From: Vulcanimicrobiota bacterium
Lineage (GTDB): Bacteria; Vulcanimicrobiota; Xenobia; Xenobiales; JADMJV01
Direction: 5' to 3'
DNA length: 64,000 nt
Assembly (NCBI GenBank): GCA_050250895.1
Contig: JBFWNU010000003.1
Coordinates: forward strand, 523,302 to 587,301
The notes under the pieces are model-generated. The model made no database searches. It saw only the letters and a list, made by a program, of their open reading frames with translations, and was not told where the DNA came from. A program made the translations under genes and the position numbers. Positions 7,595-63,632 of the stretch are shown here, piece after piece; the stretch's first letter is position 1, and each line of letters opens with the position of its first letter.

Positions 7595-7966
7595 GCCGGG
7601 CCACTCCCGCGCGGAAGAGGAGCGGCCATAGCCGCCACGATTTCGGCGTACCACGCTGCCAAATGGCCGGCCTCGCCGGCCGGGCTTGGGCCGGCAGCTC
7701 GCCGGGGCCCAGCCGCACGGAAGAAGCTGGCCCCGAAGGGCAGCCCTGCCGGGCCGAACGCCTGCTCGCTGTCTCCCGGCGGGTGTGCGCCGTACAGTCC
7801 GGTTCAGCCAGTGTGCGGCGCAAGTGTGCGCCGCACAGGGCGGTTTGCCTGGTGTGCGGCGCACAACGTTGCTCACGGTCGCCGCCCCGCCCGTCGGCCT
7901 CGCCGGGGCCGGGCCCTGCCGGCAAGCTCGCCCGGGCCACTTCCGCCCGGAAGACGAGCTGGCCCC
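7595..7966. repeat. Degenerate triplicated GC-rich unit carrying CTTCC-N4-GGAAG-type cores, plus TGTGCGGCGCA inverted repeats
   Basis: GCCGGGCCACTCCCGCGCGGAAGAGGAGCGGCC (~7595), GCCGGGGCCCAGCCGCACGGAAGAAGCTGGCCCC (~7701), GCCCGGGCCACTTCCGCCCGGAAGACGAGCTGGCCCC (~7930); located between convergent genes. Confidence 0.65.
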
Positions 7967-7985
7967 AGCCGAAACCGGTCCAGCC

Positions 7986-9164
7986 CTAGCTGCGCTTGAC
8001 GAAATAGGCGGCCTCTTGGTCGCCTTGACGGAGCACGACTTTGCCGCCCTTGGCCCCGGTCAAGAGCCAGAAGTTGGCTTTGGCCTCGATTCCTTTGAGG
8101 GGGTTCTTGCGCCCTTTGTCGGGTTTGAAGTCGCTATAGGTCAGGTAGGAGTCGTCGATGGTGGGGCTTGAGATCTTGCCAGTGTAGCTCTGACCGTCGA
8201 TGACCAGCTTGAGGGTCTCTTTCTCGGTGGTCACCTCGACCTCGCGCGGCAGGCCCGCCGGCGCGTTCTTGTTCTTGCCGGCGTAGGTGAAGGCGGGCAG
8301 ACGGTCGGCGGGGGTGCTGGTGGGGGGAATTGTCTTGTCGAGCCCGGGCACGTCGACATAGATGTTGTCGCGGGCGGCCAGATAGTCGGCTAGCGAAGCC
8401 ACCATGTCCATCTTGTTGTCGGGGATGGCCGGGTTCGGCTCGCCTTTGGCGGTCTTGCGCCACAAAGCCATGTGGTTCGAGGCGATCTGCGCGGCCGTCT
8501 TCTTGACGTCGGCCGGGCCTTTCAAGCCTTTGATGAGTTCGCCGGCCAACTCGCCGTGGTCGTTGGCGTAACCGTTCCACGGCACCCCACCCTTGACCGT
8601 GTCGTGCAGGAGCAGCCCGGCTCGCAGGGTGTCCTGTTCGCGTTCGCTGAGCCCGAAGAACTCACCCAGGTGCTCGCCCATCTGCACCACTCGCGCGGTA
8701 TGCAGGGCCAGCCCGCCATCGTTGATCTCGTCGGCCGGATGGAACATCCCTGAAGAAGACGAGGGAGCCCGGAAGAACTCGCTGTCGACCTCTTTGAACC
8801 CGGCCACGACCATGGCTCGGATGGAGGGGTCGACGATCAGGTCGGTGGCCGTCTGCAAAGCCACTTTGCCGCAGGCTTTCACCCAACCCGACGAGGCCGC
8901 GGCGACCTCGGCCCGGTCCTCGATGCGGCCCTGGCCGAAGACCGGGGTGGGACGAAAGTTGATGCCAGGCTTCTTGGAGAGAAAGTCTGAGAGCTTGTCG
9001 ACTCGAGCTTCGAGAGCAACGTCGTCGTGGGGCTGGAGGTCGGGAGGATAGATGGTGCCATCGAGGCCACTTCCATTCTTTTCACCGTGCATCTGGTGGT
9101 ATCCGTGGAGTTCGGTTTGAAACTCCTGGCGAAGCCTGGTCCGCGGGCTGACAGCGTTCATCAT
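7986..9164 (-). CDS. HD-domain phosphohydrolase (YhaM-like/phage-type HD) with N- and C-terminal extensions
   Basis: FFRAPSSSSGMFHP...GGLALHT, LLLHDTVK, DHGE, NHM, ADYLAAR; GGAGGA before ATG ATG at 9164/9161 (ORF track start 9320 is probably too long). Confidence 0.8.
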   Translation of the reverse strand: MMNAVSPRTRLRQEFQTELHGYHQMHGEKNGSGLDGTIYPPDLQPHDDVALEARVDKLSDFLSKKPGINFRPTPVFGQGRIEDRAEVAAASSGWVKACGKVALQTATDLIVDPSIRAMVVAGFKEVDSEFFRAPSSSSGMFHPADEINDGGLALHTARVVQMGEHLGEFFGLSEREQDTLRAGLLLHDTVKGGVPWNGYANDHGELAGELIKGLKGPADVKKTAAQIASNHMALWRKTAKGEPNPAIPDNKMDMVASLADYLAARDNIYVDVPGLDKTIPPTSTPADRLPAFTYAGKNKNAPAGLPREVEVTTEKETLKLVIDGQSYTGKISSPTIDDSYLTYSDFKPDKGRKNPLKGIEAKANFWLLTGAKGGKVVLRQGDQEAAYFVKRS

Positions 9165-9274
9165 TTCCTCCTGGCGTGGTAGGACGGTAACCGGACTATT
9201 TTGACCGTGTATCCTCAAAGAATCCTGAAACCGTCTCTTAACGGGCTGATGACAGCGGTGGGCTAGACTGAGGT

Positions 9275-9898
9275 ATGAGAATCCAACCTGCCACTCCCTT
9301 TCTCGACTTCGCCAAGGCACGCGCCGCCGAGCGCCAACGAGACGAATTGCCGGCCGCTGCCGTCGACAGCTGGGAGAGCGTCGGCCGCGACCAGCTCGAA
9401 AACCTGCACGGCCAGCTTCAGCCTCAGAGCAAGGACTTTCCTAACCTTCAGGCCGCCTGGGTGTTGGGGCTGGGCAATCCTATCCTGGGAGCGGTCTTGC
9501 GGGGTGAGCAAGAGCGGATGAAGAGCTATGACTTCGCCTCGAGCCTGACCGAGGTGGGTGGAGTCAACGCCCGCGAGATTCGCCAGGCGGCAAGCCTTCG
9601 CCAGGAGAGATTGCGCCAATCGGCTGAGCGCCTCGAGTCACTGGCTGGGGTCGGCTCGATGGTGGGCTGGGCCGGAGCCTTCTGCGCTATCGGAGGCTGT
9701 CTGCTCGACGGGATGACCAACCCGGTCACCCTGACCGGTGCGGCCGCCACGGTGGCCGGGATAACCACCAACGCCCTGGCCCACCGCGCCCGCGAGGGCA
9801 AGCTGGAGCAGGCGCACCACCTCGGGACGATGGCCGGCCAGATCAAGACTTACGCCGAACTGACCGCCCGCCTCGAGACCTCAACCCTGGCCTGCTAA
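9275..9898 (+). CDS. Hypothetical protein with two C-terminal hydrophobic segments
   Basis: 207-aa ORF; hydrophobic GVGSMVGWAGAFCAIGGCLL and VTLTGAAATVAGI; TAGACT -10-like hexamer 5 nt upstream. Confidence 0.6.
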   Translation: MRIQPATPFLDFAKARAAERQRDELPAAAVDSWESVGRDQLENLHGQLQPQSKDFPNLQAAWVLGLGNPILGAVLRGEQERMKSYDFASSLTEVGGVNAREIRQAASLRQERLRQSAERLESLAGVGSMVGWAGAFCAIGGCLLDGMTNPVTLTGAAATVAGITTNALAHRAREGKLEQAHHLGTMAGQIKTYAELTARLETSTLAC

Positions 9899-9965
9899 CT
9901 TCCCGGGGTCGACTACCGGCCTCTACTCTAGCGAGTTTGGGACGGACGTGGTAAACTCGAGGCGC

Positions 9966-10307
9966 ATGCTTGAATTGCCATCCAGGACCGACCACGTTCA
10001 TCTTGTCAGGGACTCTCACGGCGGGGTTCGCATTGGCAAAACCCGGGTTTCCCTGGACAGTGTGGTCCACGCTTACCTGCTTGGCGCCACTGCCGAAGGA
10101 ATTGCGGAGCAGTTTCCTTCTCTCGGCTTGGCCGACGTTCACTCCGTGCTAGGATTCTATCTTCGTCATCGTGACCAGGTGGATGCTTATTTGGCGGAGC
10201 GACAGGCCGAAGGACAAGCCCTGCGAGAGAACTACGAGCAAAGCGATGAGCTTCAGGGCTATCGGCAGCGCCTGCTTGCGCGGCAGGCTCAACGGAGGGG
10301 TAAATAG
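9966..10307 (+). CDS. DUF433-family antitoxin (VapB45-like)
   Basis: GGVRIGKTRVSLDSVVHAYLLGATAEGIAEQFPSLGLADVHSVLGFY is typical DUF433; TG-G-TAAACT extended -10 at 9949-9957. Confidence 0.88.
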   Translation: MLELPSRTDHVHLVRDSHGGVRIGKTRVSLDSVVHAYLLGATAEGIAEQFPSLGLADVHSVLGFYLRHRDQVDAYLAERQAEGQALRENYEQSDELQGYRQRLLARQAQRRGK

Positions 10308-10642
10308 ATTCGCCTGTTGTCGAGTTCGCCGGGGGCGCTGCAACTAGCTAAGAGCCAAAGGTCTTCAATGATGGCTGCTACGAACGCTGGTTGCGGGACC
10401 AGCACGAGACCGGGGCTCGGCAACCCGAGCATCATTCGCTCGTCAAAGTAGTATATCATCGTGTTCACGTCGTGGGTGAGCACGATTCGCCTTTCGTTGG
10501 TGGCCCACTCTAGGAGTTCCGGATCTTCGGAGCCGGCCATCACTGTGTCTTGGACCCGAACGATATCTATGGCGGGGTGACGACGCTCAAGCCCTCGCAG
10601 GATGTGGTTGTTGAAATTCTCGTCGGCGGCGAACCTGAGCAT
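10289..10642 (-). CDS. DUF5615-family PIN-like toxin (VapC45-like)
   Basis: MLRFAADENFN...GSEDPELLEWATNERRIVLTHD; the ATG overlaps the upstream stop (TGATG). Confidence 0.88.
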   Translation of the reverse strand: MLRFAADENFNNHILRGLERRHPAIDIVRVQDTVMAGSEDPELLEWATNERRIVLTHDVNTMIYYFDERMMLGLPSPGLVLVPQPAFVAAIIEDLWLLASCSAPGELDNRRIYLPLR

Positions 10643-11508
10643 CAGAGGAAACCGGCGGGCTTTGCGGTTCCCGTCGCGAACCATCCGGGTCGTGGCAGTG
10701 CCGGGGTCAAAAAGTATGTGACTGACGGAGAGGCAAACACTCGGTCCACCAGGCCTTCTGGGGTGAAGGTAACCAGAATGAAGAGCGAATCGTCAACCTC
10801 GATAAAGCCAGACTTCGCAACAGGGCCAAACGCTCGCTCTACAACAGATCGGCTCATTCCCGCTTCGACCACTCGGCCGTCGCGCAAGCGAAGACTGCGA
10901 CCCTCAAGAGCTTGTAGGGTGCGATTGAGGTAGAAATACCCAATCTGCAAAGGCCACATGGAACAGAATTGGCCCTCGACCGGGATCCCTAGTCTGGATA
11001 TGACCTCCGCTCGGGTGGCTCCTAGTGGGACCTCGTCGACCACGCACCCGACCGGCAACTTTAGCTTGGCGCCCTCGGGCTCCGACAACCAATCCTGGGG
11101 TAGTTCGGCCTTAACGGCGCTCCACACTTTGAGAAAGGCCTGCAGTTCCGGGTCAAAGATGGCTTCCTCAGCCCGATTGGTCGACCAGCAGCGTTCTCTG
11201 CCTCCCGCGCTCACGGTGATATTCCGGTGCAAGTTGCCGCAAAGATACGGAATCCAGGAGGGGTAATCCGTCTGTAAACTTTGAAACTCTGGCGACCCCA
11301 CGGCTGACCGTATTCGCTGGAGCGCTTCAGGCGTTAGCCGAACAGCTCCACCGCGCCGGCGCGCAAGCCCGCTAGCGTCAACGGTAACGAGCTCATAGCT
11401 TCCCGCGAACCCTCGATAGTTGAGTTCGAGATTGCACTGCCAGGCGTCATCTTGGGCCAAAACCGGCAGGCCGAGGAGCAGTAACAGACCGAGTATTGTT
11501 CTGGCCAC
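10642..11508 (-). CDS. Exported hypothetical protein
   Basis: 288-aa ORF; signal peptide MARTILGLLLLLGLPVLAQ. Confidence 0.65.
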   Translation of the reverse strand: MARTILGLLLLLGLPVLAQDDAWQCNLELNYRGFAGSYELVTVDASGLARRRGGAVRLTPEALQRIRSAVGSPEFQSLQTDYPSWIPYLCGNLHRNITVSAGGRERCWSTNRAEEAIFDPELQAFLKVWSAVKAELPQDWLSEPEGAKLKLPVGCVVDEVPLGATRAEVISRLGIPVEGQFCSMWPLQIGYFYLNRTLQALEGRSLRLRDGRVVEAGMSRSVVERAFGPVAKSGFIEVDDSLFILVTFTPEGLVDRVFASPSVTYFLTPALPRPGWFATGTAKPAGFL

Positions 11509-11610
11509 GGCTACCTGTTCGGCTTAGGAGGCCTCAACCCTGGCCTGCTAACTTCCGCGCGGAAGTCGGCGGCTGTGCAATCGGGCCCGCATTTTGCTAC
11601 ACTGTCTGAG

Positions 11611-15484: not shown

Positions 15485-15964
15485 ATGAGTATCGGGCTTG
15501 CCTTCAAGGCCTTTTTTAAAGTGCTCGGCGACAAGGAAGTGGCCGAGAAAGTCTCGGCCATTCTGGGCGAGGCTCCTAAAGAGTTGGCGGCGCCGCCGGT
15601 CGATTCGGCCGGCCAGTTGCTTTCGACTCTCCAGCGCGAGGGTCGGTTTATCGACTTTCTGCAAGAGGACCTGACCGGGTTCCAGGACGCCCAGATCGGA
15701 GCCGTGGCTCGTGATGTCCACGGCGGTTGTCGCAAGGCGCTCGATCAGTATCTGACCATCAAACCGGTGATGGCCGAATCCGAAGGGGATAGCGTGACCG
15801 TGTCCGAGGGTTTTGACCCCAACACCATTCGCCTGGTGGGCAAAGTCGAAGGGGACCCGCCCTTTGACGGCACCCTGCGTCACCACGGTTGGAAGCTCGT
15901 CGCTTCCAAGCTGCCCCCGATGGCCAACGCCGAAATTTTGCTGCCCGCGGAGGTAGAATTATGA
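15485..15964 (+). CDS. DUF2760 domain protein
   Basis: LLSTLQREGRFIDFLQEDL...DAQIGAVARDVHGGCRKAL...GFDP..IRLVG...PPFDGTLRHHGW; directly upstream of two Hsp70 genes. Confidence 0.88.
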   Translation: MSIGLAFKAFFKVLGDKEVAEKVSAILGEAPKELAAPPVDSAGQLLSTLQREGRFIDFLQEDLTGFQDAQIGAVARDVHGGCRKALDQYLTIKPVMAESEGDSVTVSEGFDPNTIRLVGKVEGDPPFDGTLRHHGWKLVASKLPPMANAEILLPAEVEL

Positions 15965-17703
15965 CCTGGGTTATCGGAATTGATTTAGGCACGACCAACA
16001 CCACGCTGGCTTATGCCGAGCCAGCCGAAGAAGAGGGCGAAGAGTATACGCAAGAGGTCTTCGAGATCCCGCAGTTGGTCGCTCCCAACACGGTGGAGGG
16101 GCGCACCAGTCTGCCCTCGTTTCTATATTTGCCAAGCGAACACGAGGTAGGGGCGGGAAGTTTGTCGCTGCCCTGGGACGAGGTGGCCCTGCATGCCGTG
16201 GGCACCTATGCTCGCGACGAGGGCGTGAAGGTGCCCGACCATCTCATCTCGTCGGCCAAGTCGTGGCTCAGTCAGGAGGGGGTCGACCGCAAGGGGAAGA
16301 TCCTGCCCTGGAAGGCTCCCGAGGACGTCGAACAGCAGTCGCCGGTAGAGGCCTCGACCAACTATCTGCGGCACCTGGCCGACTCCTGGAAGTGGAAGCA
16401 CAAGGACGCTCCCCTGCCCGATCAAGAGGTGGTTCTGACGGTGCCGGCCTCGTTTGACGCGGTGGCCCGCGAGTTGACCGCCGAGGCGGCACGGGCGGCC
16501 GGGTTGGCCAACATCACCTTGCTCGAAGAGCCTCAGGCCGCCTTTTATGCCTGGCTTGACAAGGCTGGTGAAGACTGGCGCTCGCAGGTGGGCAAAGGCG
16601 ATCTGGTGCTGGTCTGCGACATCGGCGGCGGGACCACCGACCTGAGCTTGATTAAAGTGTATGAAGAAGAGGGTGACCTGGCCCTCGAGCGCGTGGCCGT
16701 GGGCGAACACATCCTGCTGGGCGGCGACAACATGGACCTGACCCTGGCCGTTTCGGTGCGGGCTCGCCTGAAGAAAGAGGGCACCAAGCTCGATTCGTGG
16801 CAGTTCCAGGTGCTCACCCACGGTTGCCGGGCGGCCAAGGAGGCCCTGCTCGGTGGCAGTGACGAGGATACCTTTCAGGTCACCATCCCCGGTCGCGGCA
16901 GTAAGCTCATCGGCGGGGCTCTGCAGGTCGACATCGAGCGCGACGAGGTCGAGAAGCTGCTGATGGAGGGATTTTTCCCTGAGGTCGAGGCCGACGAACG
17001 ACCGGCTCAAAAGACCCGCGTCGGTCTCACCGAGTTGGGTTTGCCTTACGAGGCCGACCCGGCCATTACCCGTCACCTGGCCGGCTTTCTCAAGGAAGAG
17101 TACGAGCCCACCGCCATCTTGTTCAACGGCGGCGTGTTCAAGGCCACCCAGCTGCGCGACCGGCTGGTGGACGTGGTCAACAGCTGGGTGGAAGAGCCGG
17201 TCAAAGTGCTGGAAGGCACCGACCTCGATCTGGCCGTAGCTCGCGGAGCGGTGCGCTATGGATTGGTCAAGAAGGGCCACGGCATCCGCATTCGCGGCGG
17301 CCTGTCGCGGTCGTACTACATCGGCGTCGAGGTGGCTATGCCGGCCGTGCCGGGGATGGAGCCGCCCATCAAAGCCGTGTGTGTGGCTCCCAAGGGCATG
17401 GAGGAGGGCTCGGAGCTCGACGTGCCCGACCAGGAGTTTGGATTGGTGCTGGGCGAGGATGTCGAGTTCCCTTTCCTGGCTTCCAGCGAGGCCGACGAGG
17501 TGGGCACCGTCCACGAGGACTGGGAAGACGAGGAGATCGAGGAGTTGGCCAAAGTGGGCGCAACCCTCAAGGGCGATGGGGGAGTGGTGCCGGTGCGGTT
17601 GCAGACGGTGGCCACCGAGATCGGCACCCTCGAGCTGTACTGCGTCGAGCGCGACGGCGAGGGGCGCTGGAAGCTCGAATTCGAGGTTCGGGAGTCAGAG
17701 TAG
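15961..17703 (+). CDS. Hsp70-family protein (non-DnaK)
   Basis: GIDLGTTN, TVPASFD, LLEEPQAA, DIGGGTTD, LGGDNMD; ATGA overlap with the DUF2760 stop. Confidence 0.92.
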   Translation: MTWVIGIDLGTTNTTLAYAEPAEEEGEEYTQEVFEIPQLVAPNTVEGRTSLPSFLYLPSEHEVGAGSLSLPWDEVALHAVGTYARDEGVKVPDHLISSAKSWLSQEGVDRKGKILPWKAPEDVEQQSPVEASTNYLRHLADSWKWKHKDAPLPDQEVVLTVPASFDAVARELTAEAARAAGLANITLLEEPQAAFYAWLDKAGEDWRSQVGKGDLVLVCDIGGGTTDLSLIKVYEEEGDLALERVAVGEHILLGGDNMDLTLAVSVRARLKKEGTKLDSWQFQVLTHGCRAAKEALLGGSDEDTFQVTIPGRGSKLIGGALQVDIERDEVEKLLMEGFFPEVEADERPAQKTRVGLTELGLPYEADPAITRHLAGFLKEEYEPTAILFNGGVFKATQLRDRLVDVVNSWVEEPVKVLEGTDLDLAVARGAVRYGLVKKGHGIRIRGGLSRSYYIGVEVAMPAVPGMEPPIKAVCVAPKGMEEGSELDVPDQEFGLVLGEDVEFPFLASSEADEVGTVHEDWEDEEIEELAKVGATLKGDGGVVPVRLQTVATEIGTLELYCVERDGEGRWKLEFEVRESE

Positions 17704-20352
17704 TTGCGACAGGTAGTTGGTCTGGATCTGGGCACCTCGAACTCGACTCTGGCTCGAGTGCTGCCCGATTCGAACCAGCTCGAGACGGTTCCCATTCTGC
17801 AGCGGGTGTCAGCCACCGAGACGGCTACCCGCAACCTGTTGCCGTCGTTTTTGTATCTGCCCGGCGGCCACGAGCTGGCCGCCGACGCCATGACCTTGCC
17901 CTGGGACGAAGACCGCGACTATCTGGTGGGCGAGTTCGCCCGCGAGCAGGGGGCCCGGGTGCCGGGGAGGGTGGTCTCGTCGGCCAAGAGCTGGCTGGCT
18001 CATCGCAAGCTCGATCCCACCGAGCCGATCTTGCCCTGGGAGCGGGCCAAGGACCTCGACCCCATCAGCCCGGTCGAGGCCACCTCGCGCTATCTGCTAC
18101 ACCTGGTCGAATCCTGGAATCATCAGTTTCCCGAAGAAAGCCTGCAAAATCAAGAAGTCATCCTGACCGTTCCCGCCTCGTTTGACGAGCTGGCCCGCAA
18201 GCTCACCGCCGGAGCGGCGGCCGAGAACGGTCTGGCCGTGCGCCTGTTGGAAGAGCCGCAGGCGGCCTTCTATTCGTGGTTGTGGCGCCATCCCAAAGAC
18301 TGGAAGAAGCTGGTCGAGGTCGACGAGCATATCCTGGTCTGCGACATCGGCGGCGGAACCACCGACTTCACCCTCATCAAGTTGGGCGAAGGCGGCTTCG
18401 AGCGCGTGGCCGTGGGCGACCACCTGATGCTCGGCGGCGACAATCTCGACATCGCCCTGGCCCATCACGTCGAGCCGCGCCTGGGAGCCAAGCTCGATCT
18501 CTTGCAGTGGGGCGTGTTGCGCCACCAGTGCCGGCGGGCCAAAGAGCTGTTGCTCTCAGACGACCCGCCCGACGAAGCCAACATCACCGTGCCCGGCAGC
18601 GGCGCTCGCATGTTGAAAGGGGCGCTCACCGACACCCTCCGCCGCGAAGAGGTGGAAAGGCTGGTGCTCGACGGCTTCTTTCCCACCCTCGCCAAAGACG
18701 ACATCGAGTCGCCGGAGGCGGCCCGCAAAGGCTTGAAGGAGTGGGGTCTTCCCTATGAGTCGGATGCGGCCGTGCCGCGCCATCTGGCCCGCTTTCTGGC
18801 CGTGCAGAAGGCCCCCGTGCCGGCCAAAGTCTTGTTCAACGGCGGGGCCTGCCGGCCGCCGGCCCTGCGCCGGCGGTTGCTCGACATCTTGAGCGAGTGG
18901 CGCGGGCAAGAGGTGAGCGAACTCGAAAACCCCGAGTCGGATTTGGCTGTGGCCCGGGGAGCGGCCTGGTTTGGCCATCTGCGCCGCAGCGGCGGCATGC
19001 GGATCGGGGGCGGCAGCGCCCGCTCCTACTACCTCGGTCTGGCCGACCAGAAGGCCCTGTGCGTGGTGCCGCGCAACCTGGTTGAAGGCCACCGCATCGA
19101 CCTGGCCGAGCCCGAGTTGAAACTGCTGGTCAACCAGCCCGCCCGCTTTCCGCTGTTTTCTAGCTCCAACCGGGTCGAGGACGAACCGGGCGATCTGGTG
19201 GATATCGAGGCCTTGGCCGACCTGGGGCCGCTCGAGACGGTGGTCAAGGCCACCAAAGCGCGCAAGAACGAGGTCTCTGTCCATCTGTCGGCCGAGGTCA
19301 CCGAGGTAGGCACCCTCGACCTGTGGGCCCAGAGCGACAGCCATCGCTATTCGCTGGAGTTTCCTATTCGCGAGGGTTCGGCCGCCGGAGCCGCAGTCGA
19401 GTTGCAGTCGCGCAAAGTGCGCGAGGCCCGTGCTTTGATCGAGGAGACCTTCAATCTCAAGCCGTCCAAGCTGGGCAAGGCTCTGGCCCGCCCGCGCACG
19501 ATGCTCAGTGTGCTCGAGAGCCAGATGGGGCCGCGCGAGGAGTGGTCGCTGCCGCTCAACCGGGCCTTCTGGGACAGCCTCAACGCGGTGGCCCGGCGGC
19601 GCCGGGTCGAGCCCGAGTACGAGGCCGGCTGGTTCAACGCGGTGGGTTACTGTTTGCGGCCGGGGTTCGGGGTAGCCCTCGACGAGTGGCGCATCGACCA
19701 GATGGCCGAGGTGCTCGACGGTTGGATGCAGTTTCCCAAGGACGACAAGGTCAAGGTTCAGTTCTGGATCATGTGGCGAAGGTTGGCTCCCGGCTTGCCC
19801 ACTTCGGTGCAACTCGAGCTATGGAACCAGCTCCACCCGGTGCTCTTGCCCGGACGCAAGCACATCAAGACTCGCAACAAAGGCCAGCGGGGAGCTGACG
19901 AAGAGAAAGAGATGCTGCGCCTGGCCGTTAGCCTCGAGCGGGTGCCTCCCGACGAGAAGGTGGCCCTGGGCGGGCTGCTGATGAGTCGCTTTAGCGGGGC
20001 TGACGAGGATTTCTGGCTGATGGCCCGGCTGGCCACCCGCGAGCCGCTGGGCGGTTCGGTCGACCGGGTGGTCGAGCCGGCGGTGGTCGAGGGTTGGGTG
20101 GACCAGATGTTGGCCTCGAGCTGGCAGTCCAAGCGACTGGCCTGTCTGGCTCTGGTCGAGACGGTCAGAATCACCGGTGACCGTGGTCGCGACGTCGATC
20201 CGGCCCTGGTGGACCGCGTCTCGGAGCGGCTGGTCAAAGCCGGTCAGGCCGAGCGCTTCGAGCCCGTGCTGCGAGGTGAGGCCCTCGAGCAGCAAGAGGA
20301 CCGGGCGGCCCTGCTGGGCGATGCCCTGCCGGTGGGCCTGCGGCTCGCCTGA
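17704..20352 (+). CDS. Hsp70-family protein with long C-terminal helical extension (DUF3731-like)
   Basis: GLDLGTSN, TVPASFD, LLEEPQAA, DIGGGTTD; C-terminal WFNAVGYCLRPGFG..LDEWR, WIMWRR, TGDRGRD, GDALPVGLRL. Confidence 0.92.
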   Translation: MRQVVGLDLGTSNSTLARVLPDSNQLETVPILQRVSATETATRNLLPSFLYLPGGHELAADAMTLPWDEDRDYLVGEFAREQGARVPGRVVSSAKSWLAHRKLDPTEPILPWERAKDLDPISPVEATSRYLLHLVESWNHQFPEESLQNQEVILTVPASFDELARKLTAGAAAENGLAVRLLEEPQAAFYSWLWRHPKDWKKLVEVDEHILVCDIGGGTTDFTLIKLGEGGFERVAVGDHLMLGGDNLDIALAHHVEPRLGAKLDLLQWGVLRHQCRRAKELLLSDDPPDEANITVPGSGARMLKGALTDTLRREEVERLVLDGFFPTLAKDDIESPEAARKGLKEWGLPYESDAAVPRHLARFLAVQKAPVPAKVLFNGGACRPPALRRRLLDILSEWRGQEVSELENPESDLAVARGAAWFGHLRRSGGMRIGGGSARSYYLGLADQKALCVVPRNLVEGHRIDLAEPELKLLVNQPARFPLFSSSNRVEDEPGDLVDIEALADLGPLETVVKATKARKNEVSVHLSAEVTEVGTLDLWAQSDSHRYSLEFPIREGSAAGAAVELQSRKVREARALIEETFNLKPSKLGKALARPRTMLSVLESQMGPREEWSLPLNRAFWDSLNAVARRRRVEPEYEAGWFNAVGYCLRPGFGVALDEWRIDQMAEVLDGWMQFPKDDKVKVQFWIMWRRLAPGLPTSVQLELWNQLHPVLLPGRKHIKTRNKGQRGADEEKEMLRLAVSLERVPPDEKVALGGLLMSRFSGADEDFWLMARLATREPLGGSVDRVVEPAVVEGWVDQMLASSWQSKRLACLALVETVRITGDRGRDVDPALVDRVSERLVKAGQAERFEPVLRGEALEQQEDRAALLGDALPVGLRLA

Positions 20353-20353
20353 C

Positions 20354-29938: not shown

Positions 29939-30070
29939 GGACCTGGCCTTCGACGACAGGCAGGAGGGGCGCCTGCTACGCGCACCCCAGTCTGGCTAGC
30001 GCGTCGGGTCGCGGTCACGACTTCCAGCTGGAAGGGCCCGTCCACGCAGCCTCCTCGAGGCGCCAGCGAG

Positions 30071-48171: not shown

Positions 48172-49827
48172 ATGCGAAAACTGTCGATTCTTCTTCTGCT
48201 CATGTTCTGCTCGGGCACGGTTCTGGCCGACCCGACGGCCGATTTTATCCAACTGCGTGACGCCTATCTCGAGAAGGTCAAGCCCCTCGAACGAGAGGCC
48301 AACGACGCCTGGTGGCAAGCCAGCACTACCGGCTCGGAAGAGGCCTACGCCCGCCGCACCAAAGCCGACAACGCCCTGGCCGCCCTGCAGAGCGACCGCG
48401 AGGTGTTCGCCAAGCTCAAGGCCCTCAAAGCCCAGGGCCTGCCCGACCCCGGTCTTCAGCGGCAGTTGACCATGATGTATCTGGCCTTCTTGCCCAAGCA
48501 GGCCGACCCCGAACTCAATCGGCAGATCAATGCCCTCGAGGCCGACGTGGAGAAGATCTTCAACACCCACCGATCCGAGGTCAACGGCCAGCGCCTGACC
48601 GAGAACGACGTGCGCAAGATTTTGCACGAGACCAGCGACACCAACGAGGCCAAAGCCGCCTGGACCGGCTACATGGAAGTCGGCAGTAAGGTGGAACCCA
48701 AGCTCAAAGAGCTGGTCAAATTGCGCAACCAGGTGGCCCAGAGGCTGGGTTTCGAGAACTACTTCCAGCTCAAGCTGGCCCAGCAGGAATTAAGCCAGGA
48801 CGAGCTGTTTGCCATCTTCGACGAACTCGACGAGTTGACCCGAGGCCCCTTCGGTGAACTCAAAGCCGAGATCGACGCCCACATGATGAAGCGGTTCTCG
48901 CTGACCAGGGACCAGTTGCGTCCCTGGCACACCGACGACCTGTTCTTTCAAGAAGCTCCTCACCTGGCCACCGTCAACCTCGATCAGATCTACGAGGGTC
49001 GCGACCCGGTGAAGCTCTCTGAGCAGCACTACGAGAGCATGGGGATGAGGGTCGAAGCGATCATCGCCCGCAGCGATCTCTACGAGAAGGAAGACAAGAG
49101 CCCTCACGCTTTCTGCACCAACATCGACCGGGGCCAGGACATTCGCGTGCTGTGCAACGTCAAACCCAACGCCAACTGGATGGACACCATGCATCACGAG
49201 CTGGGGCACGGTGTTTATGACCAGTACATCGGCAAAGACGTACCCTTTTTGCTACACGAGCCGGCCCACATCCTGACCACCGAGGGAATGGCCATGCTAT
49301 TCGGGGCCCTGACCAAGAATCCCGAGTTTATCAAAGACGTTGTGGGTGTCGACGACCCGGCTCTGTTGGCCGAGTCGCAGCGCAGCCTGCGGGCCGAGAA
49401 GCTGATCTTCTCTCGCTGGACCCAGGTGATGCTTCGCTTCGAGCGCGGCATGTACGAAAATCCCGACCAGGACCTCAACGCCCTGTGGTGGTCGCTCAAG
49501 AAGCAATATCAGAACCTCAATCCGCCCGACGACCTGAGCGGTGCCGACTATGGAGCCAAGCTGCACATCGTGGGAGCGCCTTGCTATTACCACAACTACA
49601 TGCTGGGCGAACTGTTCGCTTCTCAGGTGCGGGCCTACGCGGCCAAGAAGTATCTGGGTCTGGACAATCCCCTCAAAACCAGCTTCTATGGGAATAAAGA
49701 GGCGGGAGAGTACTTCCGCGATCAGATCTTCGCTCCCGGCAACACCTATGATTGGCGCGAGTTGACCAAACGGGCTACGGGCGAGCCGCTAACGGCTCGT
49801 TACTACGCCAAGCTCTACGTCAAGTAG
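48172..49827 (+). CDS. Exported M2/M3-type (ACE-like) zinc metallopeptidase
   Basis: Signal peptide; HHELGH (HExxH), downstream TEG ligand, HIV...YYHNY. Confidence 0.88.
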   Translation: MRKLSILLLLMFCSGTVLADPTADFIQLRDAYLEKVKPLEREANDAWWQASTTGSEEAYARRTKADNALAALQSDREVFAKLKALKAQGLPDPGLQRQLTMMYLAFLPKQADPELNRQINALEADVEKIFNTHRSEVNGQRLTENDVRKILHETSDTNEAKAAWTGYMEVGSKVEPKLKELVKLRNQVAQRLGFENYFQLKLAQQELSQDELFAIFDELDELTRGPFGELKAEIDAHMMKRFSLTRDQLRPWHTDDLFFQEAPHLATVNLDQIYEGRDPVKLSEQHYESMGMRVEAIIARSDLYEKEDKSPHAFCTNIDRGQDIRVLCNVKPNANWMDTMHHELGHGVYDQYIGKDVPFLLHEPAHILTTEGMAMLFGALTKNPEFIKDVVGVDDPALLAESQRSLRAEKLIFSRWTQVMLRFERGMYENPDQDLNALWWSLKKQYQNLNPPDDLSGADYGAKLHIVGAPCYYHNYMLGELFASQVRAYAAKKYLGLDNPLKTSFYGNKEAGEYFRDQIFAPGNTYDWRELTKRATGEPLTARYYAKLYVK

Positions 49828-50674
49828 ACTCTTCCAGCCGACGGAGCCTCTCCTCCAGGGCCGCCGCGTGCTCGCGGGCGGCCCTTGCTTCGGCCTGGGC
49901 CTTTTCGGCTTCGGCCTGGGCCTTTTCGGCTTCGGCCTGGGCCTTTTCGGCTTCGGCCTGGGCCTTTTCGGCTTCGGCCTGAGCCTTTTCGGCTTCGGCC
50001 TGAGCCTTCTCGGCCAGGGCCTGGCTTTGGGCCGCCCGTTCGGCTCCTGTCAGGAGGAGGTTGCCTTGCTCGTCGCACCACCGCAGCCAGGTCGCCTGGT
50101 AGCCTTCGTACTCTCCCTCCCAGGTCGTAAGACCGAGCAGGGCATCGGGAAGCCATCCCGGCGTCAAGAGGTCGATGTAGCTTCTGCCATTAAGCTGGTA
50201 AGCGCGCAGAGCACGACTGCCGTAGCGTTTGAGGGGGTCATAGATGATGTAGTATCCGATGCCCTGTTCACCGTAGGTTTTGAACTTGCGTTCGGTTTCT
50301 CCGCCTTTGGTGTTGGAGACGATTTCGATGACGATGTCTGGCGGCTTACCATAGACCCACGTCATGTAAGCTCGGTTGCCCTTCTCCCAAATGTCTGCAG
50401 GGAGGCTCACGTCCAAACTGACCATGACATCCGGTACCAGTGCGGGATTCTTCGGCACGAAGAAGAGGCCGACGTTGGCAAAGGCCACAAACGGCCGTCC
50501 CTGCCGCATCTCGTCGCTCCAGGACTCATATAACGACCCCGCCAGCAGCCGTTGCTGCTTTTCGGAGAAAGGGTTATCCATCGGCTCGTCGTCCTCGGTG
50601 ATGAGGTGCGAGATATCGGGGACGGGTGGATAGTCGTCCTGAATGGCTGGGTCCACGGCGGGCTCCTTCGGCAT
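49820..50674 (-). CDS. Uma2/DUF820 family endonuclease-fold protein with heptad-repeat tail
   Basis: EDDEPMDN, VPDVMVS, GKPPDIVIEIVS, IGYYIIYDP, WLRWCD..G.LLLTG.ERA. Confidence 0.92.
   Translation of the reverse strand: MPKEPAVDPAIQDDYPPVPDISHLITEDDEPMDNPFSEKQQRLLAGSLYESWSDEMRQGRPFVAFANVGLFFVPKNPALVPDVMVSLDVSLPADIWEKGNRAYMTWVYGKPPDIVIEIVSNTKGGETERKFKTYGEQGIGYYIIYDPLKRYGSRALRAYQLNGRSYIDLLTPGWLPDALLGLTTWEGEYEGYQATWLRWCDEQGNLLLTGAERAAQSQALAEKAQAEAEKAQAEAEKAQAEAEKAQAEAEKAQAEAEKAQAEARAAREHAAALEERLRRLEEST
49887..50012. repeat. 21-bp coding tandem repeat x6 (encodes EKAQAEA)
   Basis: GCTTCGGCCTG(G/A)GCCTT(T/C)TCG repeated six times; the first four copies are identical. Confidence 0.95.
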
Positions 50675-58540: not shown

Positions 58541-59188
58541 ATGACCCTCGAGCAGATAGCCGCGAAGATCGCCGCTGGCGAGTGGGATGGGTTAGCCGAG
58601 TTGCTTCGTCCGCACGCGGCCGCCGACGACCTGGAAGCCCAGTACTTGCTCGGAAGCCTGCTACTGACGGACTGTTCCGCGTCGAATCTCGAGCTGTTGG
58701 GCTGGCTGGACCGGGCCGTTTCCAAGGGGCACGCGGGAGCACTCTATCTGAAATCGATGCTGGGGGAGGTCAGTGAGGATTCGTTGTGCACCGGCGGGCC
58801 CCAGACCGACGAGCAACGAGAGCTGCTGCAAAGAGCGGCTCAACTGGGTTGGGCTGATGCCCAGAGAGACCTCGGCTGCCTGCTCGCGACGGGAGAGGGC
58901 GGGTTCGCCCAGGACGGTGAACGAGGCCGCTACTGGTATCAGCAGGCGGCCGAGCAAGGCCACTCTGATGCTCAATACAATCTGGCCATCATGCTTCTGG
59001 CTGGCGAAGGGGGTCCCCCCGACCCGGTGGAGGGGATGCGGTGGCTTGGCCTCGCTGCCCGCGCGCCCGATGGTGGCTACTTTGCGGGGGTCGCCGCCGA
59101 CATCCTGAGTGCGGGGGCCTTCGGCGTAAGGCCAGACCCGCAGCGGGCGGCCTTCTATCGTCAGCTTGAGAGCAACTCTCACCGCTAG
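58541..59188 (+). CDS. Sel1-like repeat protein
   Basis: AQYLLG, AAQLGWADAQRDLG, WYQQAAEQGHSDAQYNLA. Confidence 0.88.
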   Translation: MTLEQIAAKIAAGEWDGLAELLRPHAAADDLEAQYLLGSLLLTDCSASNLELLGWLDRAVSKGHAGALYLKSMLGEVSEDSLCTGGPQTDEQRELLQRAAQLGWADAQRDLGCLLATGEGGFAQDGERGRYWYQQAAEQGHSDAQYNLAIMLLAGEGGPPDPVEGMRWLGLAARAPDGGYFAGVAADILSAGAFGVRPDPQRAAFYRQLESNSHR

Positions 59189-59248
59189 GGTTGCCCGGCG
59201 CGGCGCTCACTGGAGGTCCGGTCTGGACGGCCGGGGAATTTGAGTTGG

Positions 59249-59854
59249 ATGAGGACCGTCGGGATCAGAAGGCCGGGAGACGGCTGGTTTTACATCCTGC
59301 GCGATCGCTTCTACTTCGTTTGGCTGTCGACCCTGGTCTTTTGCCTTATCGCCGGCATCTTCCGCTGGGAGGATCTATTCTATCTGGGGTTCGTGCTCTT
59401 CCTCGCGCTTTGTCCCGTCGGACTGAGCCTGGCTGTTCTCTACCTCTATCGCAACGTGACCTGTGAGTATTGGGCCTATGACCTGGAACTGGGGCAGGTC
59501 TTGCGCGTGGCGAATTGGCCCGCTCGCTATCGGCTGGTGGCTCGCGTGGATGAGCTGACCGAAGTGGTGGTGGCCGCCGAGGAGACAGCGGCCGTCTGGG
59601 TGGCCGATGGCTCAAATCGCAGCGCCGAGCAGGTGGTCTACCTGCTGCGGGGCTTGCTGCCGCCACTGGCTGTGTCGCGCACAAAGTTCTCGGAGCGCCT
59701 GCTCGTCGGGCCGGACGGCCGGGCGACTTTTCTCGCCTATGACTACAATTGGGCCTGGCTGCGGGCGGCGATGGGGCTGGGAGTCTCCTTTAGCTGGCCG
59801 GCCCTGTTGTTGGGCGGGTTGACGTTGCCCGGCTTTTTGATGGTGGGTTACTGA
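59249..59854 (+). CDS. Hypothetical membrane protein
   Basis: Two N-terminal and one or two C-terminal hydrophobic segments; start 59240 or 59249. Confidence 0.6.
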   Translation: MRTVGIRRPGDGWFYILRDRFYFVWLSTLVFCLIAGIFRWEDLFYLGFVLFLALCPVGLSLAVLYLYRNVTCEYWAYDLELGQVLRVANWPARYRLVARVDELTEVVVAAEETAAVWVADGSNRSAEQVVYLLRGLLPPLAVSRTKFSERLLVGPDGRATFLAYDYNWAWLRAAMGLGVSFSWPALLLGGLTLPGFLMVGY

Positions 59855-60107
59855 GACCGTCTTCCAGCTGGAAGTACCCTCGTCCTCGCCCGTTGCGAGA
59901 AAATGTTGTGGTATCCTAATATTTGCGCACCGAGAGATTGTTCCGGTTGGAGTCCAACCTCAAAACATCGCTTCTAAAGTCCCCAGAGACCCTGTCCGGT
60001 ATCCTGGCGCCAGAATGCTTCGCAGAACGGATTTTGGCGCCGCAAGGCCTTCTCGCGGCCACCTGCGAGTCGCCTCGAAAAACCCGTAATCAAGCCGTTT
60101 TCTTGCG

Positions 60108-60136
60108 TTGATCGGGATGGCGATCTTGAGTAAAAT
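60108..60136 (+). promoter_or_regulatory. Sigma70-type promoter of the HNH gene
   Basis: TTGATC-N17-TAAAAT; GGAGG Shine-Dalgarno at 60166-60170. Confidence 0.6.
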
Positions 60137-60176
60137 AGGAGTATCCCTTGATTCTTCTTCTAACCGGAGGTCGGCT

Positions 60177-61364
60177 ATGTCTTCAACGCTAACTGGGCTT
60201 TCCCAAACACTGCAACAACTCTCTCACCAGGAACTGCACCGGCGAAACCAACAGGCTAGCCAGCGCTCCTTTGGCTGCGAGTGGGAGCTGGCCGCCCACC
60301 TTCTAGCTACCGAGCGCAGCGGTCTCTACCGTCACATGGGTAGTGGAAGCGTGGTTGGCTACGCCATCAATCATCTCAATCTGCATCCCCAGAAGGCCGG
60401 TGAACTGCTTAGCCTGGCCAGGGTCTTCGAGCAACTGCCTCTGATATCAGAGGCCTTTCGCGAGGGGAGACTTTGCTGGAGCAAGGCCCGTGCTCTCAAG
60501 CGCATCACCACTCCCGAGAACGAGGCTGAAATGCTCGAATTTGCTTTGAAGAACAAGGCCCAGGCAGTCGAGCGCGCCGTCGCTCTGACTCCCGCCCAGC
60601 ATAAGCGTGGCCAGGCTTTGAAAGCCTCCCTCGAAGCACGTCAGAGTCAGCCCGCGCTGACCTTCGCTGAACAACGCACCGAGGCAGTTCACAAGCCAGC
60701 GCCGCCCCCCGGGCCAGAGGCTCCGAAGTTGAGACAGGTCGTCCTGCTGATGACCTCCGAGCAATACGCCATCTATGAGCAAGCCAAGAGAATGGTCGAG
60801 GCCCGCCAGGGCAAGCGCGTCAGCAAAGAAACGGCTGTGACCGAGATGAGCCGAGCCCTTCTCGCCTCGGCAGACAACCGCAGCAAAGTGCGACATCAGG
60901 TCATTGTTCACGTGAACGGTGAGACCGGCCAGGGCTTCTATGATACCGATCGAGGACTGTTGCCAGCCGAGCCTGCGGCCGTTGACGAGGCGATGAAGCA
61001 AACCGGCATCGTGGTGTCCGGGGCCCCCAGCGTACTTCCAGCTGGAAGTACTCAGGCCGAACAGTTGCCGTTGCTGCCGAGTCGCTCCCAAGGCCGTACG
61101 GGCATTCCGGTGGGTTTGGTGCGAGCGGTCTACGCCCGCGCTTTCGGCCGCTGTGAGCGATGCTCGTGCACAGGCGGCAATCTGGTAATTCATCACGTCC
61201 GTGCCTGGTCCGATACCAGGCGGCATCGGCTGGAAGATCTGGAACTGCTGTGCCCGGGTTGCCACGCCAACGAGCACGTCAAAGACTATGAAAGTCGGCC
61301 CGAGTGGCAGGCAGCGCGAGACGCGGGGGTGCAGCGCCGGCGCATCAGGTCGCGCTCGGGGTGA
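60177..61364 (+). CDS. HNH endonuclease with DUF222-like N-terminal helical domain
   Basis: LAAHL...GLY...GSGSVVGYA...LARVFEQLPLISEAFREGRLCWSKAR N-terminus; C-terminal CERC...IHHV.AWS.....LEDLELLCPGCH..EH. Confidence 0.88.
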   Translation: MSSTLTGLSQTLQQLSHQELHRRNQQASQRSFGCEWELAAHLLATERSGLYRHMGSGSVVGYAINHLNLHPQKAGELLSLARVFEQLPLISEAFREGRLCWSKARALKRITTPENEAEMLEFALKNKAQAVERAVALTPAQHKRGQALKASLEARQSQPALTFAEQRTEAVHKPAPPPGPEAPKLRQVVLLMTSEQYAIYEQAKRMVEARQGKRVSKETAVTEMSRALLASADNRSKVRHQVIVHVNGETGQGFYDTDRGLLPAEPAAVDEAMKQTGIVVSGAPSVLPAGSTQAEQLPLLPSRSQGRTGIPVGLVRAVYARAFGRCERCSCTGGNLVIHHVRAWSDTRRHRLEDLELLCPGCHANEHVKDYESRPEWQAARDAGVQRRRIRSRSG

Positions 61365-61635
61365 CGTCGCCCGGTGCCTTGTCACCGCCGTCCGGGGCGC
61401 CTTATTGGCCGCGCTTCGCCCCTGGACTGTCTTCCATCTGGAAGTACTCGCGCGAATAGTGTTGTGTTCGACTGCGCTGGGCGCCTGGCAGGCTTAGTCG
61501 GCCAACTCATCGGGGGTTACGCCGTTGCGGCCCAGGGGCATCCTCGCTAGACCAAAGACATCGACATTTGGATAGACGCGCAACGACTGATAGTTTCAAG
61601 CTTCTTTCAGGCGGTGCGGCTAGGCTGGCAATACC

Positions 61636-62736
61636 ATGCCAATCACTTTCACTCATCGTGCGGTATCGCTCGAGCAAGCCACGCGCGTCACCCAGCAGGC
61701 CAGCACCGACAAGCATATCCTGTGGGCCTTCGACCCCGAGGATAGCTGGGAAGGCGAAGGCGGCGTGTGGGGACCCGAACCCCGCTTCTTTCCCTCGGCC
61801 GACGGCTCGAAGCTCATCCTGGGAGCGGGCAATCGCCTGGCCGTGCTCGACGCCGGCACTGGCAAACTCGAGTCCGAGCAGAAGTCGCAACTCTACTTCA
61901 ACGATTGGCAGACCTTCGATCCCAAAGGTCGCTATCTCTACAGCTCGGACGACAAGGCCATCAAGGCCCTCAAGGTCTCTGACGGCAAGGTCAAGTGGAC
62001 CTGTCGCTCCCACAACGACGAGTGGTTCGGTCGCACCGCCCCCTGCGTGGGCTCCGACGGCACCGTCTATGTGGGCACTACCCGTGGGTCGGTGCTGGCC
62101 CTCGATGGCGAGACGGGCAAGAAGAAGTGGAAGATCAGCACCGGCATCTACGGTCGAGCCGTGCCGGCCATCGACAAGCAGGGCCATCTCTTCGTCGGTT
62201 TTCTCGGCGTGTCTGGCGATGAGAAGGTGCCTATTCTGGCCCTCGACCCCGCCGACGGCAAGACTTTGCGCAGTCTCGATGTGCCCAATCTCAGCGACGA
62301 ATTGCTGATCGGGCCGGATGGGTTGTTGGTGACCCAGACCACCGAGAGTTTCGACCTCAAGGCGCTCGACCCGGTGACCGGGGCCGAACGCTGGAGCTTT
62401 GACCCTCCTGACCAGGGCGGAGTGCGCTCGTTTGTCAAAGGGCCCAGGAGCGAACTCTGGGTGTCCACTTCCGAGGGCACCCTCTATCGACTCGACGGCC
62501 AGGGTCAGGTGGCTGACACCATCGCCACTGGCGAAGACCTGCGCGGCGCTCCCACGATCACTTCTGACGGGCGCATCTATGCCCGCACCTTCGACAACGA
62601 GGTGCTGGCCGTGGTGCGCGACACGGCTGCCTATCAGAGCAACCACTTCACCGTCACGGCCGAGCCGAAGAAGCAACTGGTGGATGACGGGGTCACCATC
62701 ACCATCGCCGGCATCGAGATCCCGATCGGGGATTAG
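61636..62736 (+). CDS. PQQ-binding-like beta-propeller repeat protein (no signal peptide)
   Basis: ALKVSDGKVKW, GSDGTVYVG...ALDGETGKKKW, ALDPVTGAERW. Confidence 0.88.
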   Translation: MPITFTHRAVSLEQATRVTQQASTDKHILWAFDPEDSWEGEGGVWGPEPRFFPSADGSKLILGAGNRLAVLDAGTGKLESEQKSQLYFNDWQTFDPKGRYLYSSDDKAIKALKVSDGKVKWTCRSHNDEWFGRTAPCVGSDGTVYVGTTRGSVLALDGETGKKKWKISTGIYGRAVPAIDKQGHLFVGFLGVSGDEKVPILALDPADGKTLRSLDVPNLSDELLIGPDGLLVTQTTESFDLKALDPVTGAERWSFDPPDQGGVRSFVKGPRSELWVSTSEGTLYRLDGQGQVADTIATGEDLRGAPTITSDGRIYARTFDNEVLAVVRDTAAYQSNHFTVTAEPKKQLVDDGVTITIAGIEIPIGD

Positions 62737-62872
62737 GCGCGGCACCTCTCGACGGTTGGGGCGAAGGTCCAGACCTGAGGTGATCCTGGAGTGACCAACC
62801 CGCTTTATGCGGCTCAGAAAGAACTCACGGGAATCTGGCCAGTTCCTCATTTAACAGACGTAGAATGAGGGC

Positions 62873-63181
62873 ATGGACGCCCTGACCAACAAACGTCAAA
62901 CGACCCGAAAGCGAATTGTCGTGTCGGTTAAGGGCCTCGCTCTAGCGTCCTCAAGCGTAGCTTCCCTCGACTTGAGTCGAAACGGGCTGAGGCTGGCTCC
63001 GGCTGAAGGGCTGAGGCGGGGCCAGTACGTCGAACTGGTGCTTAAGTCGGAGCGGTTCGAGGTGTTCGTGGGCGGGGTCGTTCGCTGGCTGGCCGATGGG
63101 CATGCCGGCATCGAGTTTGTGGGTCTCTCTCGCCAGTCAGCCTTGAAGCTCAAGGCAGCCCTCGAGGCTTCGCCCACCTAG
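62873..63181 (+). CDS. Stand-alone PilZ domain protein
   Basis: RxxxR (RQTTR) and DxSxxG (DLSRNG) c-di-GMP motifs; VVRW...GIEF. Confidence 0.85.
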   Translation: MDALTNKRQTTRKRIVVSVKGLALASSSVASLDLSRNGLRLAPAEGLRRGQYVELVLKSERFEVFVGGVVRWLADGHAGIEFVGLSRQSALKLKAALEASPT

Positions 63182-63209
63182 CGGGTCACTCAGCTCCTCT
63201 GACGAAGAG

Positions 63210-63632
63210 TTGGCCGTGGTCCTGATCGAAGACGGCAGCAACCAGCTGAGGTTCGAAGTGCTCGAACGGCTCGAGGTGCCTCAGGCCAGCGGCGACCTGC
63301 GGGTGCGGCTCGAGGTGCGTTCGCAAGGCTTTAGCGGGGTTCACACCGTCTGGTTTCAGGCGCACGCCTTTGACCAGTTCCTGGTCGCTCTCGACGACCT
63401 CGAACGTAGCCGTCGCGGCGAGGCCGTTTTGGCGAGTCTGAGTGACGAAGAGTTCAGGCTGACGCTCTTCGCCCGGGACCCGGCCGGGCACATCCAGGCC
63501 GACGGCCACCTGACTCAGGCCGACGGGAGACGGCCCAAAGACCTCTGGAGCCGCCTCGGGTTTGCCCTCGAAGTCGATCCCACCACTCTACCCCAGTTGG
63601 CCGAGGACTTCCGCGCGGAAGTCCTCGGCTAG
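63210..63632 (+). CDS. Hypothetical protein, possibly WapI-like immunity family
   Basis: GFSG...WF....F.QF...L..L...RRGEA.L...F.L......GHI...G.L...F..DPTTL pattern; family call tentative. Confidence 0.55.
   Translation: MAVVLIEDGSNQLRFEVLERLEVPQASGDLRVRLEVRSQGFSGVHTVWFQAHAFDQFLVALDDLERSRRGEAVLASLSDEEFRLTLFARDPAGHIQADGHLTQADGRRPKDLWSRLGFALEVDPTTLPQLAEDFRAEVLG
63600..63629. repeat. 30-nt perfect palindrome centred on CTTCCGCGCGGAAG
   Basis: GCCGAGGACTTCCGCGCGGAAGTCCTCGGC; extends to 63595-63634 with two G:T pairs. Confidence 0.9.

Follow-up and report, generated by a model that had tools for sequence, protein, structure and literature searches.

Why should one short palindrome stand beside, inside and behind a nuclease gene, and recur at many other places in the same genome? 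The question is raised by a 64,000-nt stretch of DNA from a Vulcanimicrobiota bacterium (C3:523302-587301, called the window below; the genome comprises 9.50 Mb in 17 contigs, with 63% G+C), in which CTTCC-N4-GGAAG occurs repeatedly and several copies accompany a gene with DUF222 and HNH nuclease domains. A prediction made from the letters of the window alone (the original prediction) held that the motif is a recognition or cleavage site of the encoded protein, at which insertions and duplications arise, or alternatively a parS-like site bound by a nucleoid protein. We find it strongly supported that the motif belongs to one DUF222-HNH family, by its association with the genes of this family, by the match between spacer letters and clade, and by constraint at the DNA level. 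The 16-bp palindrome A-CTTCC-N4-GGAAG-T is, in our judgment, probably a cis site, and putatively the own binding site, of this family of 13E12 type, with repair proposed as the source of duplications at the site.

How far does the motif exceed chance? The window holds seven perfect copies, at the places and with the spacers originally reported: 7940-7953 (spacer GCCC), 11552-11565 (GCGC), 30021-30034 (AGCT), 59861-59874 (AGCT), 61035-61048 (AGCT), 61431-61444 (ATCT) and 63608-63621 (GCGC). In 100 dinucleotide-preserving shuffles of the window the mean was 0.13 and the maximum 2, and none reached seven. The copy with one mismatch at 7604-7617 (CTCCCGCGCGGAAG) and the half-sites at 9899, 22792 and 52613 are also present, although lone half-sites are uninformative. 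The genome-wide count against background, which had been proposed as a check, yielded 413 copies versus 9.8 expected from 5-mer frequencies, an observed-to-expected ratio (O/E) of 42. The 875 palindromes with a 5-N4-5 layout have a median O/E of 1.13 and include CTTCC-N4-GGAAG as the sole abundant outlier, and the excess is specific to the 4-nt spacer: the same arms set 0, 2 or 6 nt apart occur only 5, 11 and 9 times in the genome. Flanking bases widen the site to 16 bp, with A before it in 295 of the 413 copies, T after it in 250, and either or both in 385. When copies with similar flanks are collapsed to one, 111 flank families are left, 79 of them unique.

To which gene is this site tied? 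The open reading frame (ORF) in the window scores above the Pfam cut-off for HNH (PF01844; 31.9 bits vs 21.4) and marginally above it for DUF222 (PF02720; 24.9 vs 24.4); a scan of the genome for DUF222 gave 16 matches, 9 of them over the cut-off. The ORF was listed from 60108, which is the beginning of a promoter-like TTGATC-17-TAAAAT (60108-60136, plus strand) kept in all copies; because of this promoter and the conserved GGAGG-ATG starts, we place the real gene start at 60177, giving a plus-strand gene of 395 aa (60177-61364). By tblastn the family has 22 loci in the genome: 17 full-length main-clade copies with 74-87% protein identity, 1 truncated copy, and 4 copies of a second clade at about 44-49% identity, 2 of which are broken. 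Another 24 loci in the genome carry other DUF222-HNH paralogues. The HNH residues C326, C329, H339, H340, C359, C362, H363 and H367 (CxxC, HH, CxxCH) are invariant in 14 sequences, and 66 pairs have a median synonymous divergence (dS) of 0.70 and a nonsynonymous-to-synonymous ratio (dN/dS) of 0.12. Judged from these comparisons, the family genes are old, functional and under strong purifying selection.

An exact motif is present at every one of the 22 family copies, either in the 750 nt upstream or in the gene itself, compared with 2 of the 24 other paralogues and with 3.4% of random 2-kb windows. The spacer, moreover, tracks the clade. It is AGCT at 53 of 74 upstream and internal sites of the main clade, whereas all 25 second-clade sites have GTGC, GGGC, GCGC or GGCC and never AGCT, with GTGC always in gene orientation; since these counts take in array copies and related loci, they speak for co-inheritance rather than for independent events. 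The internal copy, at 61035 in the window, is read as the codons L-P-A-G-S in a variable linker ahead of the HNH domain. It is exact in 15 of the 17 full-length main-clade genes, in a linker where the preceding four codons vary even in amino acid, and just 18 of 118 fourfold-degenerate sites elsewhere in the gene are invariant (12 copies). The internal copy is thus constrained as DNA. Protein homologues from other assemblies, two of them source-labelled Candidatus Eremiobacteraeota, show the same pattern: LPAGS is kept in all five main-clade homologues, and in the second clade two of three homologues have the C-terminus ATS[AG]RK, as encoded by the motif itself. The second clade itself is without the linker segment that holds the main-clade internal copy. 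Overall, the predicted link to the DUF222-like HNH gene is borne out. One protein, P0015 (on a 1367-nt ENA contig), has a ribosome-recycling factor N-terminus fused in frame to HNH homologue residues ~128-395 at 90% identity, either a real rearrangement or an assembly chimera.

How is the element built? As predicted, three copies of the motif lie around or in the gene in the window (59861, 61035 and 61431). The order is motif, short variable spacer, AATGTT box, about 200 nt, promoter and gene. Among main-clade copies, nucleotide similarity (75-83%) goes no farther on the right than the stop codon; the conserved part begins on the left with the box AATGTT-N10-AACATT, which is found in all 17 (in the window as AATGTT-N9-TAATAT, 59902-59922, plus strand). 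The box has only 8 poor matches elsewhere in the genome, and we rejected it as an SOS box or genome-wide operator because good matches occur only at the 17 main-clade elements. The motif sits 3-30 nt upstream of the box, at 59861 in the window, where it forms the left boundary of the element; at the aligned place, 10 of 17 elements have it exactly and 2 with one letter changed. At C6:171564, C11:101708, C11:75084 and C3:231230 the spacer upstream of the box is filled by an array, and C2:549644 has a copy with 3 mismatches at the aligned place and exact copies farther upstream. The main-clade leader is 276-281 nt long in the 17 copies and has no shared ORF and no 3-nt periodicity. A box TAACCAAGCC(G/A)TTT just 5' of the promoter is common to the main-clade and C2:343840 subfamilies, whose proteins are only ~30% identical.

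A second motif copy lies inside the gene in the main clade or at its 3' end in the second clade, where the motif also stands upstream and overlaps the last codons in 3 of 4 copies. The copy at 61431 in the window, 67 nt past the stop codon, has a counterpart in only some main-clade genes (3/17 have such a copy). In the pair C5:51324 and C6:489208, similarity goes on past the motif for ~16 nt and past the stop codon for ~28 nt, so the copied unit includes the motif. The defence families of the PADLOC library (E 0.001) gave no match for the nuclease.

Do rearrangements coincide with the motif? In the window, a 29-nt direct repeat brackets an island of 1.6 kb (9904-11527) found nowhere else in the genome, with the junction at the motif. 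The first repeat copy (9875-9903, plus strand) takes in the stop codon of ORF 9275-9898 and has the half-site CTTCC at its end; the second (11528-11556) runs into the full motif, so that repeat and motif together span 11528-11565 on the plus strand. The island carries a DUF433 ORF and a DUF5615/PIN-like ORF, which by their domains resemble a toxin-antitoxin pair; it has atypical codon usage and no confident gene by host codon usage. Within the family, in-frame insertions stand beside the internal copy in 5 of 17 genes (27 nt long in three of them, 24 and 21 nt in the other two), and 4 of the 5 contain a second, degenerate motif copy; an external homologue has the same 9-residue duplication at this position. 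Elsewhere, a 139-nt segment is duplicated around an array, its second copy beginning directly after a motif, a 90-nt segment with a gene 3' end brackets a 530-nt repeat insertion, and the match of the truncated family gene begins 43 nt past a motif copy. Thus, several junctions (the 29-nt repeat, the in-frame insertions, the 139-nt duplication) support the proposal that duplications and insertions arise at the motif, and its tie to the direct repeat of the island holds. The 30-nt palindrome reported around the copy at 63608 is likewise perfect and centred on it (63600-63629), in the last codons of the WapI-like ORF 63210-63632.

We also looked for the state before insertion. The 7-kb HNH region has no nucleotide match in the same-genus genome (G001) with which to compare an empty site; two scans of genome contigs found no close nucleotide-level relative, the metagenome relatives all having ≤33% identity; and public sequencing runs gave no contig bridging an empty site (shares ≤0.18, short contigs of sludge and wastewater metagenomes). 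Two joints derived from runs, from 59876 to 60297 (side 21) and from 61372 back to 61035, were too weak to use.

By what means could the protein recognize the motif? In an AlphaFold2 model built on a 14-sequence alignment, only residues 1-135 are confident (predicted local distance difference test, pLDDT, 80-95; mean of the whole model 62.8). Foldseek ranks Spo0J/ParB and Noc highest, although with weak E-values (0.14-0.4) and with a match that spans only the DNA-binding part of ParB (chain residues 99-214). Sequence methods show no ParB: hhalign against the genome's own ParB gave a probability of 0.14, a search of PDB sequences returned only HNH matches, and Pfam lists only HNH and DUF222, with no ParB N-terminal domain that binds cytidine triphosphate (CTP). 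The ParB link is therefore structural and predicted, and the nuclease N-terminal domain is a candidate for a helix-turn-helix DNA-binding fold of the ParB/Noc/KorB type. ParB and Noc bind 16-bp palindromes of the same layout as ours, with the consensus sequences TGTTTCAC-GTGAAACA and TATTTCCC-GGGAAATA, respectively (PMC7383237); against these, our half-site ACTTCCAG shares 4 of 8 positions with parS and 3 of 8 with the Noc-binding site (NBS). The resemblance is probably real, given the predicted fold of the N-terminal domain. The family nevertheless differs from ParB, Noc and KorB, since no CTP-binding domain and no sequence similarity were found and the DNA-binding domain is fused to a nuclease.

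Other DUF222-HNH subfamilies in the genome have boundary palindromes of their own, none of them dispersed: TGACCCGCGCGGGTCA at both ends (at -200 and +8) in the C5:340577 group of 3 copies, CACACGTGTG in the C3:183582 group of 10 copies that are ~93% identical, and TCCCCCGGGGGA in the C2:343840 group of 6. In the relatives, TCCCC-N-GGGGA, GTCCCTAGCAGGGAC, CGTTTCCCCGGGAAACG, AATTTCCGGCCCGGAAATT and ATTCCGTGCCGGAAT stand 40-130 nt ahead of the DUF222-HNH ORFs examined, and CGTTTCCCCGGGAAACG and AATTTCCGGCCCGGAAATT are close to the parS and NBS consensus of PMC7383237. Among all these boundary palindromes, only the CTTCC site has multiplied. In one relative only (G020; loci L035, L040 and L060), GAAC-N4-GTTC boxes of the Gram-positive LexA type precede DUF222-HNH genes.

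If the site looks like parS, might it simply serve a chromosomal ParB or Noc in organizing or segregating the nucleoid, as the original prediction allowed? The shape of the palindrome and its shared half-site positions would suit such a role, but the distribution of the copies speaks against it, and we regard it as almost certainly wrong. The 15-mer ACTTCCAGCTGGAAG occurs 89 times on the forward and 81 times on the reverse strand here, against 0-2 times per genome in 30 relatives; the same-genus genome is one of these, but it is fragmented, so that repeats may be under-assembled there. The copies are spread over 13 contigs, for the most part in tandem arrays, and strongly clustered, with 258 of 400 successive gaps shorter than 500 nt, and the only gene with an HTH_ParB domain (C1:1.137 Mb) lies in a 50-kb bin with no copy at all. 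Thus, unlike parS, the sites are not at the origin and are not conserved among relatives, and this alternative fails.

Does the protein cut at the motif, or merely bind it? Binding alone would make the upstream copy an operator for self-repression and the arrays platforms or sponges grown by slippage, similar to the tandem centromere repeats to which plasmid ParB proteins bind. The predicted domain resembles those of ParB and KorB, the latter a repressor; every subfamily has its palindrome upstream of the promoter; and the bare 5-bp stem would form only a weak hairpin (-2.9 kcal/mol) and is invariant among copies, which suggests that a duplex rather than a hairpin is recognized. Yet strong purifying selection keeps the catalytic and zinc residues of the HNH domain unchanged, junctions of insertions and duplications fall at the motif, and the position of the copies inside the gene or at its 3' end is not that of an operator. 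Pure binding seems to us quite unlikely.

We favor instead, as an account of how the own site of the family came to multiply, a mechanism in which both binding and cutting are inferred. Two ParB-type domains would bind the two half-sites, much as ParB binds parS, and the HNH nuclease would nick or cut at bound sites. Out-of-register repair between nearby copies could then duplicate flanking DNA together with the site, building tandem arrays and long target duplications, and the gene-bearing unit and the gene-less repeat units may have spread by this same route.

How are the copies distributed across the genome? Linking at 1.5 kb resolves them into 130 clusters, among them 74 single copies and 40 arrays of 3-21 copies. 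Within arrays the spacing is roughly periodic, at 20 to 320 nt, and the units mostly differ between loci, while some unit families recur at several. By a crude codon-usage gene caller (7,229 genes, 87% coding), 338 of 413 copies (82%) are intergenic, as are 41 of the 74 isolated ones. This agrees with the statement that copies in the window are mostly intergenic or at gene 3' ends: five of the seven fall between genes, a sixth is 11 nt away from the end of ORF 63210-63632, and the last is inside the HNH gene. Of the 40 arrays, 12 lie within 3 kb of a family gene, 11 of these on its 5' side (adjoining the AATGTT box in those arrays examined) and one, C11:75996, downstream.

Could the repeats have spread without the HNH protein? 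On this account they would be independent hairpins, like repetitive extragenic palindromes (REPs) or miniature inverted-repeat transposable elements (MITEs), moved by another enzyme or by slippage, and the HNH genes would carry one or land beside them. The majority of arrays, 28 of 40, have no family gene within 3 kb, and the 74 isolated copies have none nearby; the largest flank family comprises 90 sites at 20 loci; and the motif-bearing units are modular, with other hairpins in common. At ≤1 mismatch, a second 16-bp palindrome, GTGCCGAATTCGGCAC, is found at 128 sites, many in tandem arrays; some of these arrays, with a ~71-nt period, lack the CTTCC motif (e.g., C1:3518793-3519403 and C1:3697402-3698659), and the palindrome also occurs inside the largest CTTCC repeat family. 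This points to a general hairpin-repeat process in the genome that the HNH family leaves unexplained. On the other side, the genome has no Y1/RAYT transposase (PF01797; 0 matches, where the control search hit 6 of 14 known genomes), and the neighborhoods of the 28 gene-less arrays show no nuclease or transposase that recurs. Furthermore, the motif is inherited with the gene, its spacer type tracking the clade, the internal copy is held fixed in a coding region, and the unit copied between C5:51324 and C6:489208 includes the motif.

The findings on gene-less arrays, modular units and the second palindrome weigh against our interpretation that the motif is the family's own site, and others do so too. 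Within 400 nt past the stop codon, 14 of 17 main-clade copies have no motif (≤2 mismatches), and a simple two-ended element therefore does not fit. The dS of 0.70 marks the copies as old, and the family is thus not a recent burst. The match between clade and spacer may partly reflect common descent, and the fold match concerns a helical domain of a predicted model. One array, C12:2944-4873, may encode a repeat protein in which the motif is read as F-R-T/A-E: array spacings are mostly not multiples of 3, but here all 15 spacings between 16 motif copies are, with an 84-nt period. In view of the gene-less arrays, the modular repeats and the missing right-end sites, independent repeats keep real weight as an explanation, even though we think them unlikely.

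Might the motif act in RNA, as a terminator or stabilizing hairpin or as part of a guide RNA for the nuclease? The largely intergenic placement of the copies and the resemblance of the HNH domain to that of IscB (26-36 bits) would be in keeping with this. IscB/HEARO elements (relatives of IS200/IS605) have in common with the family an HNH domain of similar type and a conserved noncoding leader of fixed length before the gene. Most of the evidence runs the other way. Neighbors of the isolated intergenic copies are convergent in 14 cases, divergent in 12 and tandem in 15, which is no orientation preference and hence not the signature of a terminator, and no T run follows. The stem does not covary but stays invariant, 5 loci searched against Rfam gave no match, and no consensus structure emerged for the sense strand of the 280-nt leader (-3.4 kcal/mol, with a double change in 1 of 18 pairs). 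An IscB-type RNA-guided nuclease was rejected on these grounds and because its score falls far below the 175-bit cut-off; the protein also has no RuvC domain. The RNA-level explanation is largely refuted, and we hold it very improbable.

How does the system compare with those already known? DUF222-HNH genes, as the 13E12 family, have been known as a repeat since 1999. In Mycobacterium tuberculosis, inversion breakpoints and gene-conversion hotspots are marked by the 13E12 family, which according to papers of 2026 still has no defined function (PMC13157036 and PMC13061034); PMC10589994 likewise treats DUF222/13E12 as a repeat family of unknown function, and induction by DNA damage is reported in PMC13157036. 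The published literature searched, in which few subscription journals were represented, holds no cognate palindrome, repeat arrays or ParB-like fold for DUF222/13E12. The family described here shares with mycobacterial 13E12/REP13E12, in which DUF222 is mostly joined by HNH, the same two Pfam domains and the form of a multicopy, dispersed gene of ~1.2-1.5 kb. It differs in its marginal DUF222 score, in a host of another phylum, and in having a defined 16-bp palindrome with 413 copies and ~40 tandem arrays.

The likeness to REP/REPIN-RAYT systems lies in short palindromes that flank a nuclease gene, in hundreds of mostly extragenic copies, and in a variant for each nuclease clade. We rejected membership in that class: flanking extragenic palindromes are present, but the single-copy Y1 transposase is not, as the genome has no PF01797 match and the nuclease gene, which does not encode a Y1 HUH transposase, is present 22 times. 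Long tandem arrays whose units are particular to each locus, and a stem whose weakness and invariance suggest duplex recognition, set the system apart as well. The finding is real and combines known kinds: 13E12 repeats, REP-like repeats and ParB-parS recognition. On the predicted fold, the motif is best read as a parS-like site of a ParB-fold HNH family that has multiplied, with gene-less arrays, in one lineage.

A broader reading would make DUF222-HNH proteins ParB-fold, site-specific nucleases that form a self-propagating pair with a parS-like palindrome, a new class of mobile DNA that would also explain the 13E12 repeats. The nuclease would cut its own site, and repair would copy the site, its flanks and sometimes the gene, seeding new sites, target duplications, captured islands and centromere-like arrays. 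We put this forward tentatively, as doubtful at present. The genome is nonetheless the clearest natural experiment that we found for DUF222-HNH, with 22 genes in two clades, clade-specific spacers and hundreds of gene-less palindromes. It offers a direct test of protein domain against site variant in an environmental bacterium that is harmless, and a testable role for a long-unexplained gene family. If the nuclease does act at the site, this would show a transposase-free way for a bacterial genome to make tandem arrays and long target duplications.

What else does the window contain? The copy with one mismatch at 7604 lies in a repeat-rich intergenic region with other repeat families. The copy at 7940 is intergenic between convergent genes and belongs by its flanks to the C2:354117 array family, which comprises 7 sites at 2 loci. 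The solitary copy at 30021, which has no extended palindrome, lies between two minus-strand genes. Small repeats occur at 7353-7455 and 7783-7863 (AGCGCTCGCTGCGCTCGGAGAGGGGAGC three times and a GTGTGCGCCGTACA-type pair, respectively) and recur next to arrays and HNH copies on other contigs. A 21-nt tandem repeat of ~8 units (six overlapping 63-nt copies) spans 49866-50033 inside the minus-strand ORF 49820-50674 and is probably a coding repeat of 7 residues. Finally, the adjacent genes 15889-17703 and 17704-20352 form a tandem paralogue pair, with 73-76% nucleotide identity (16413-16770 vs 18141-18483).

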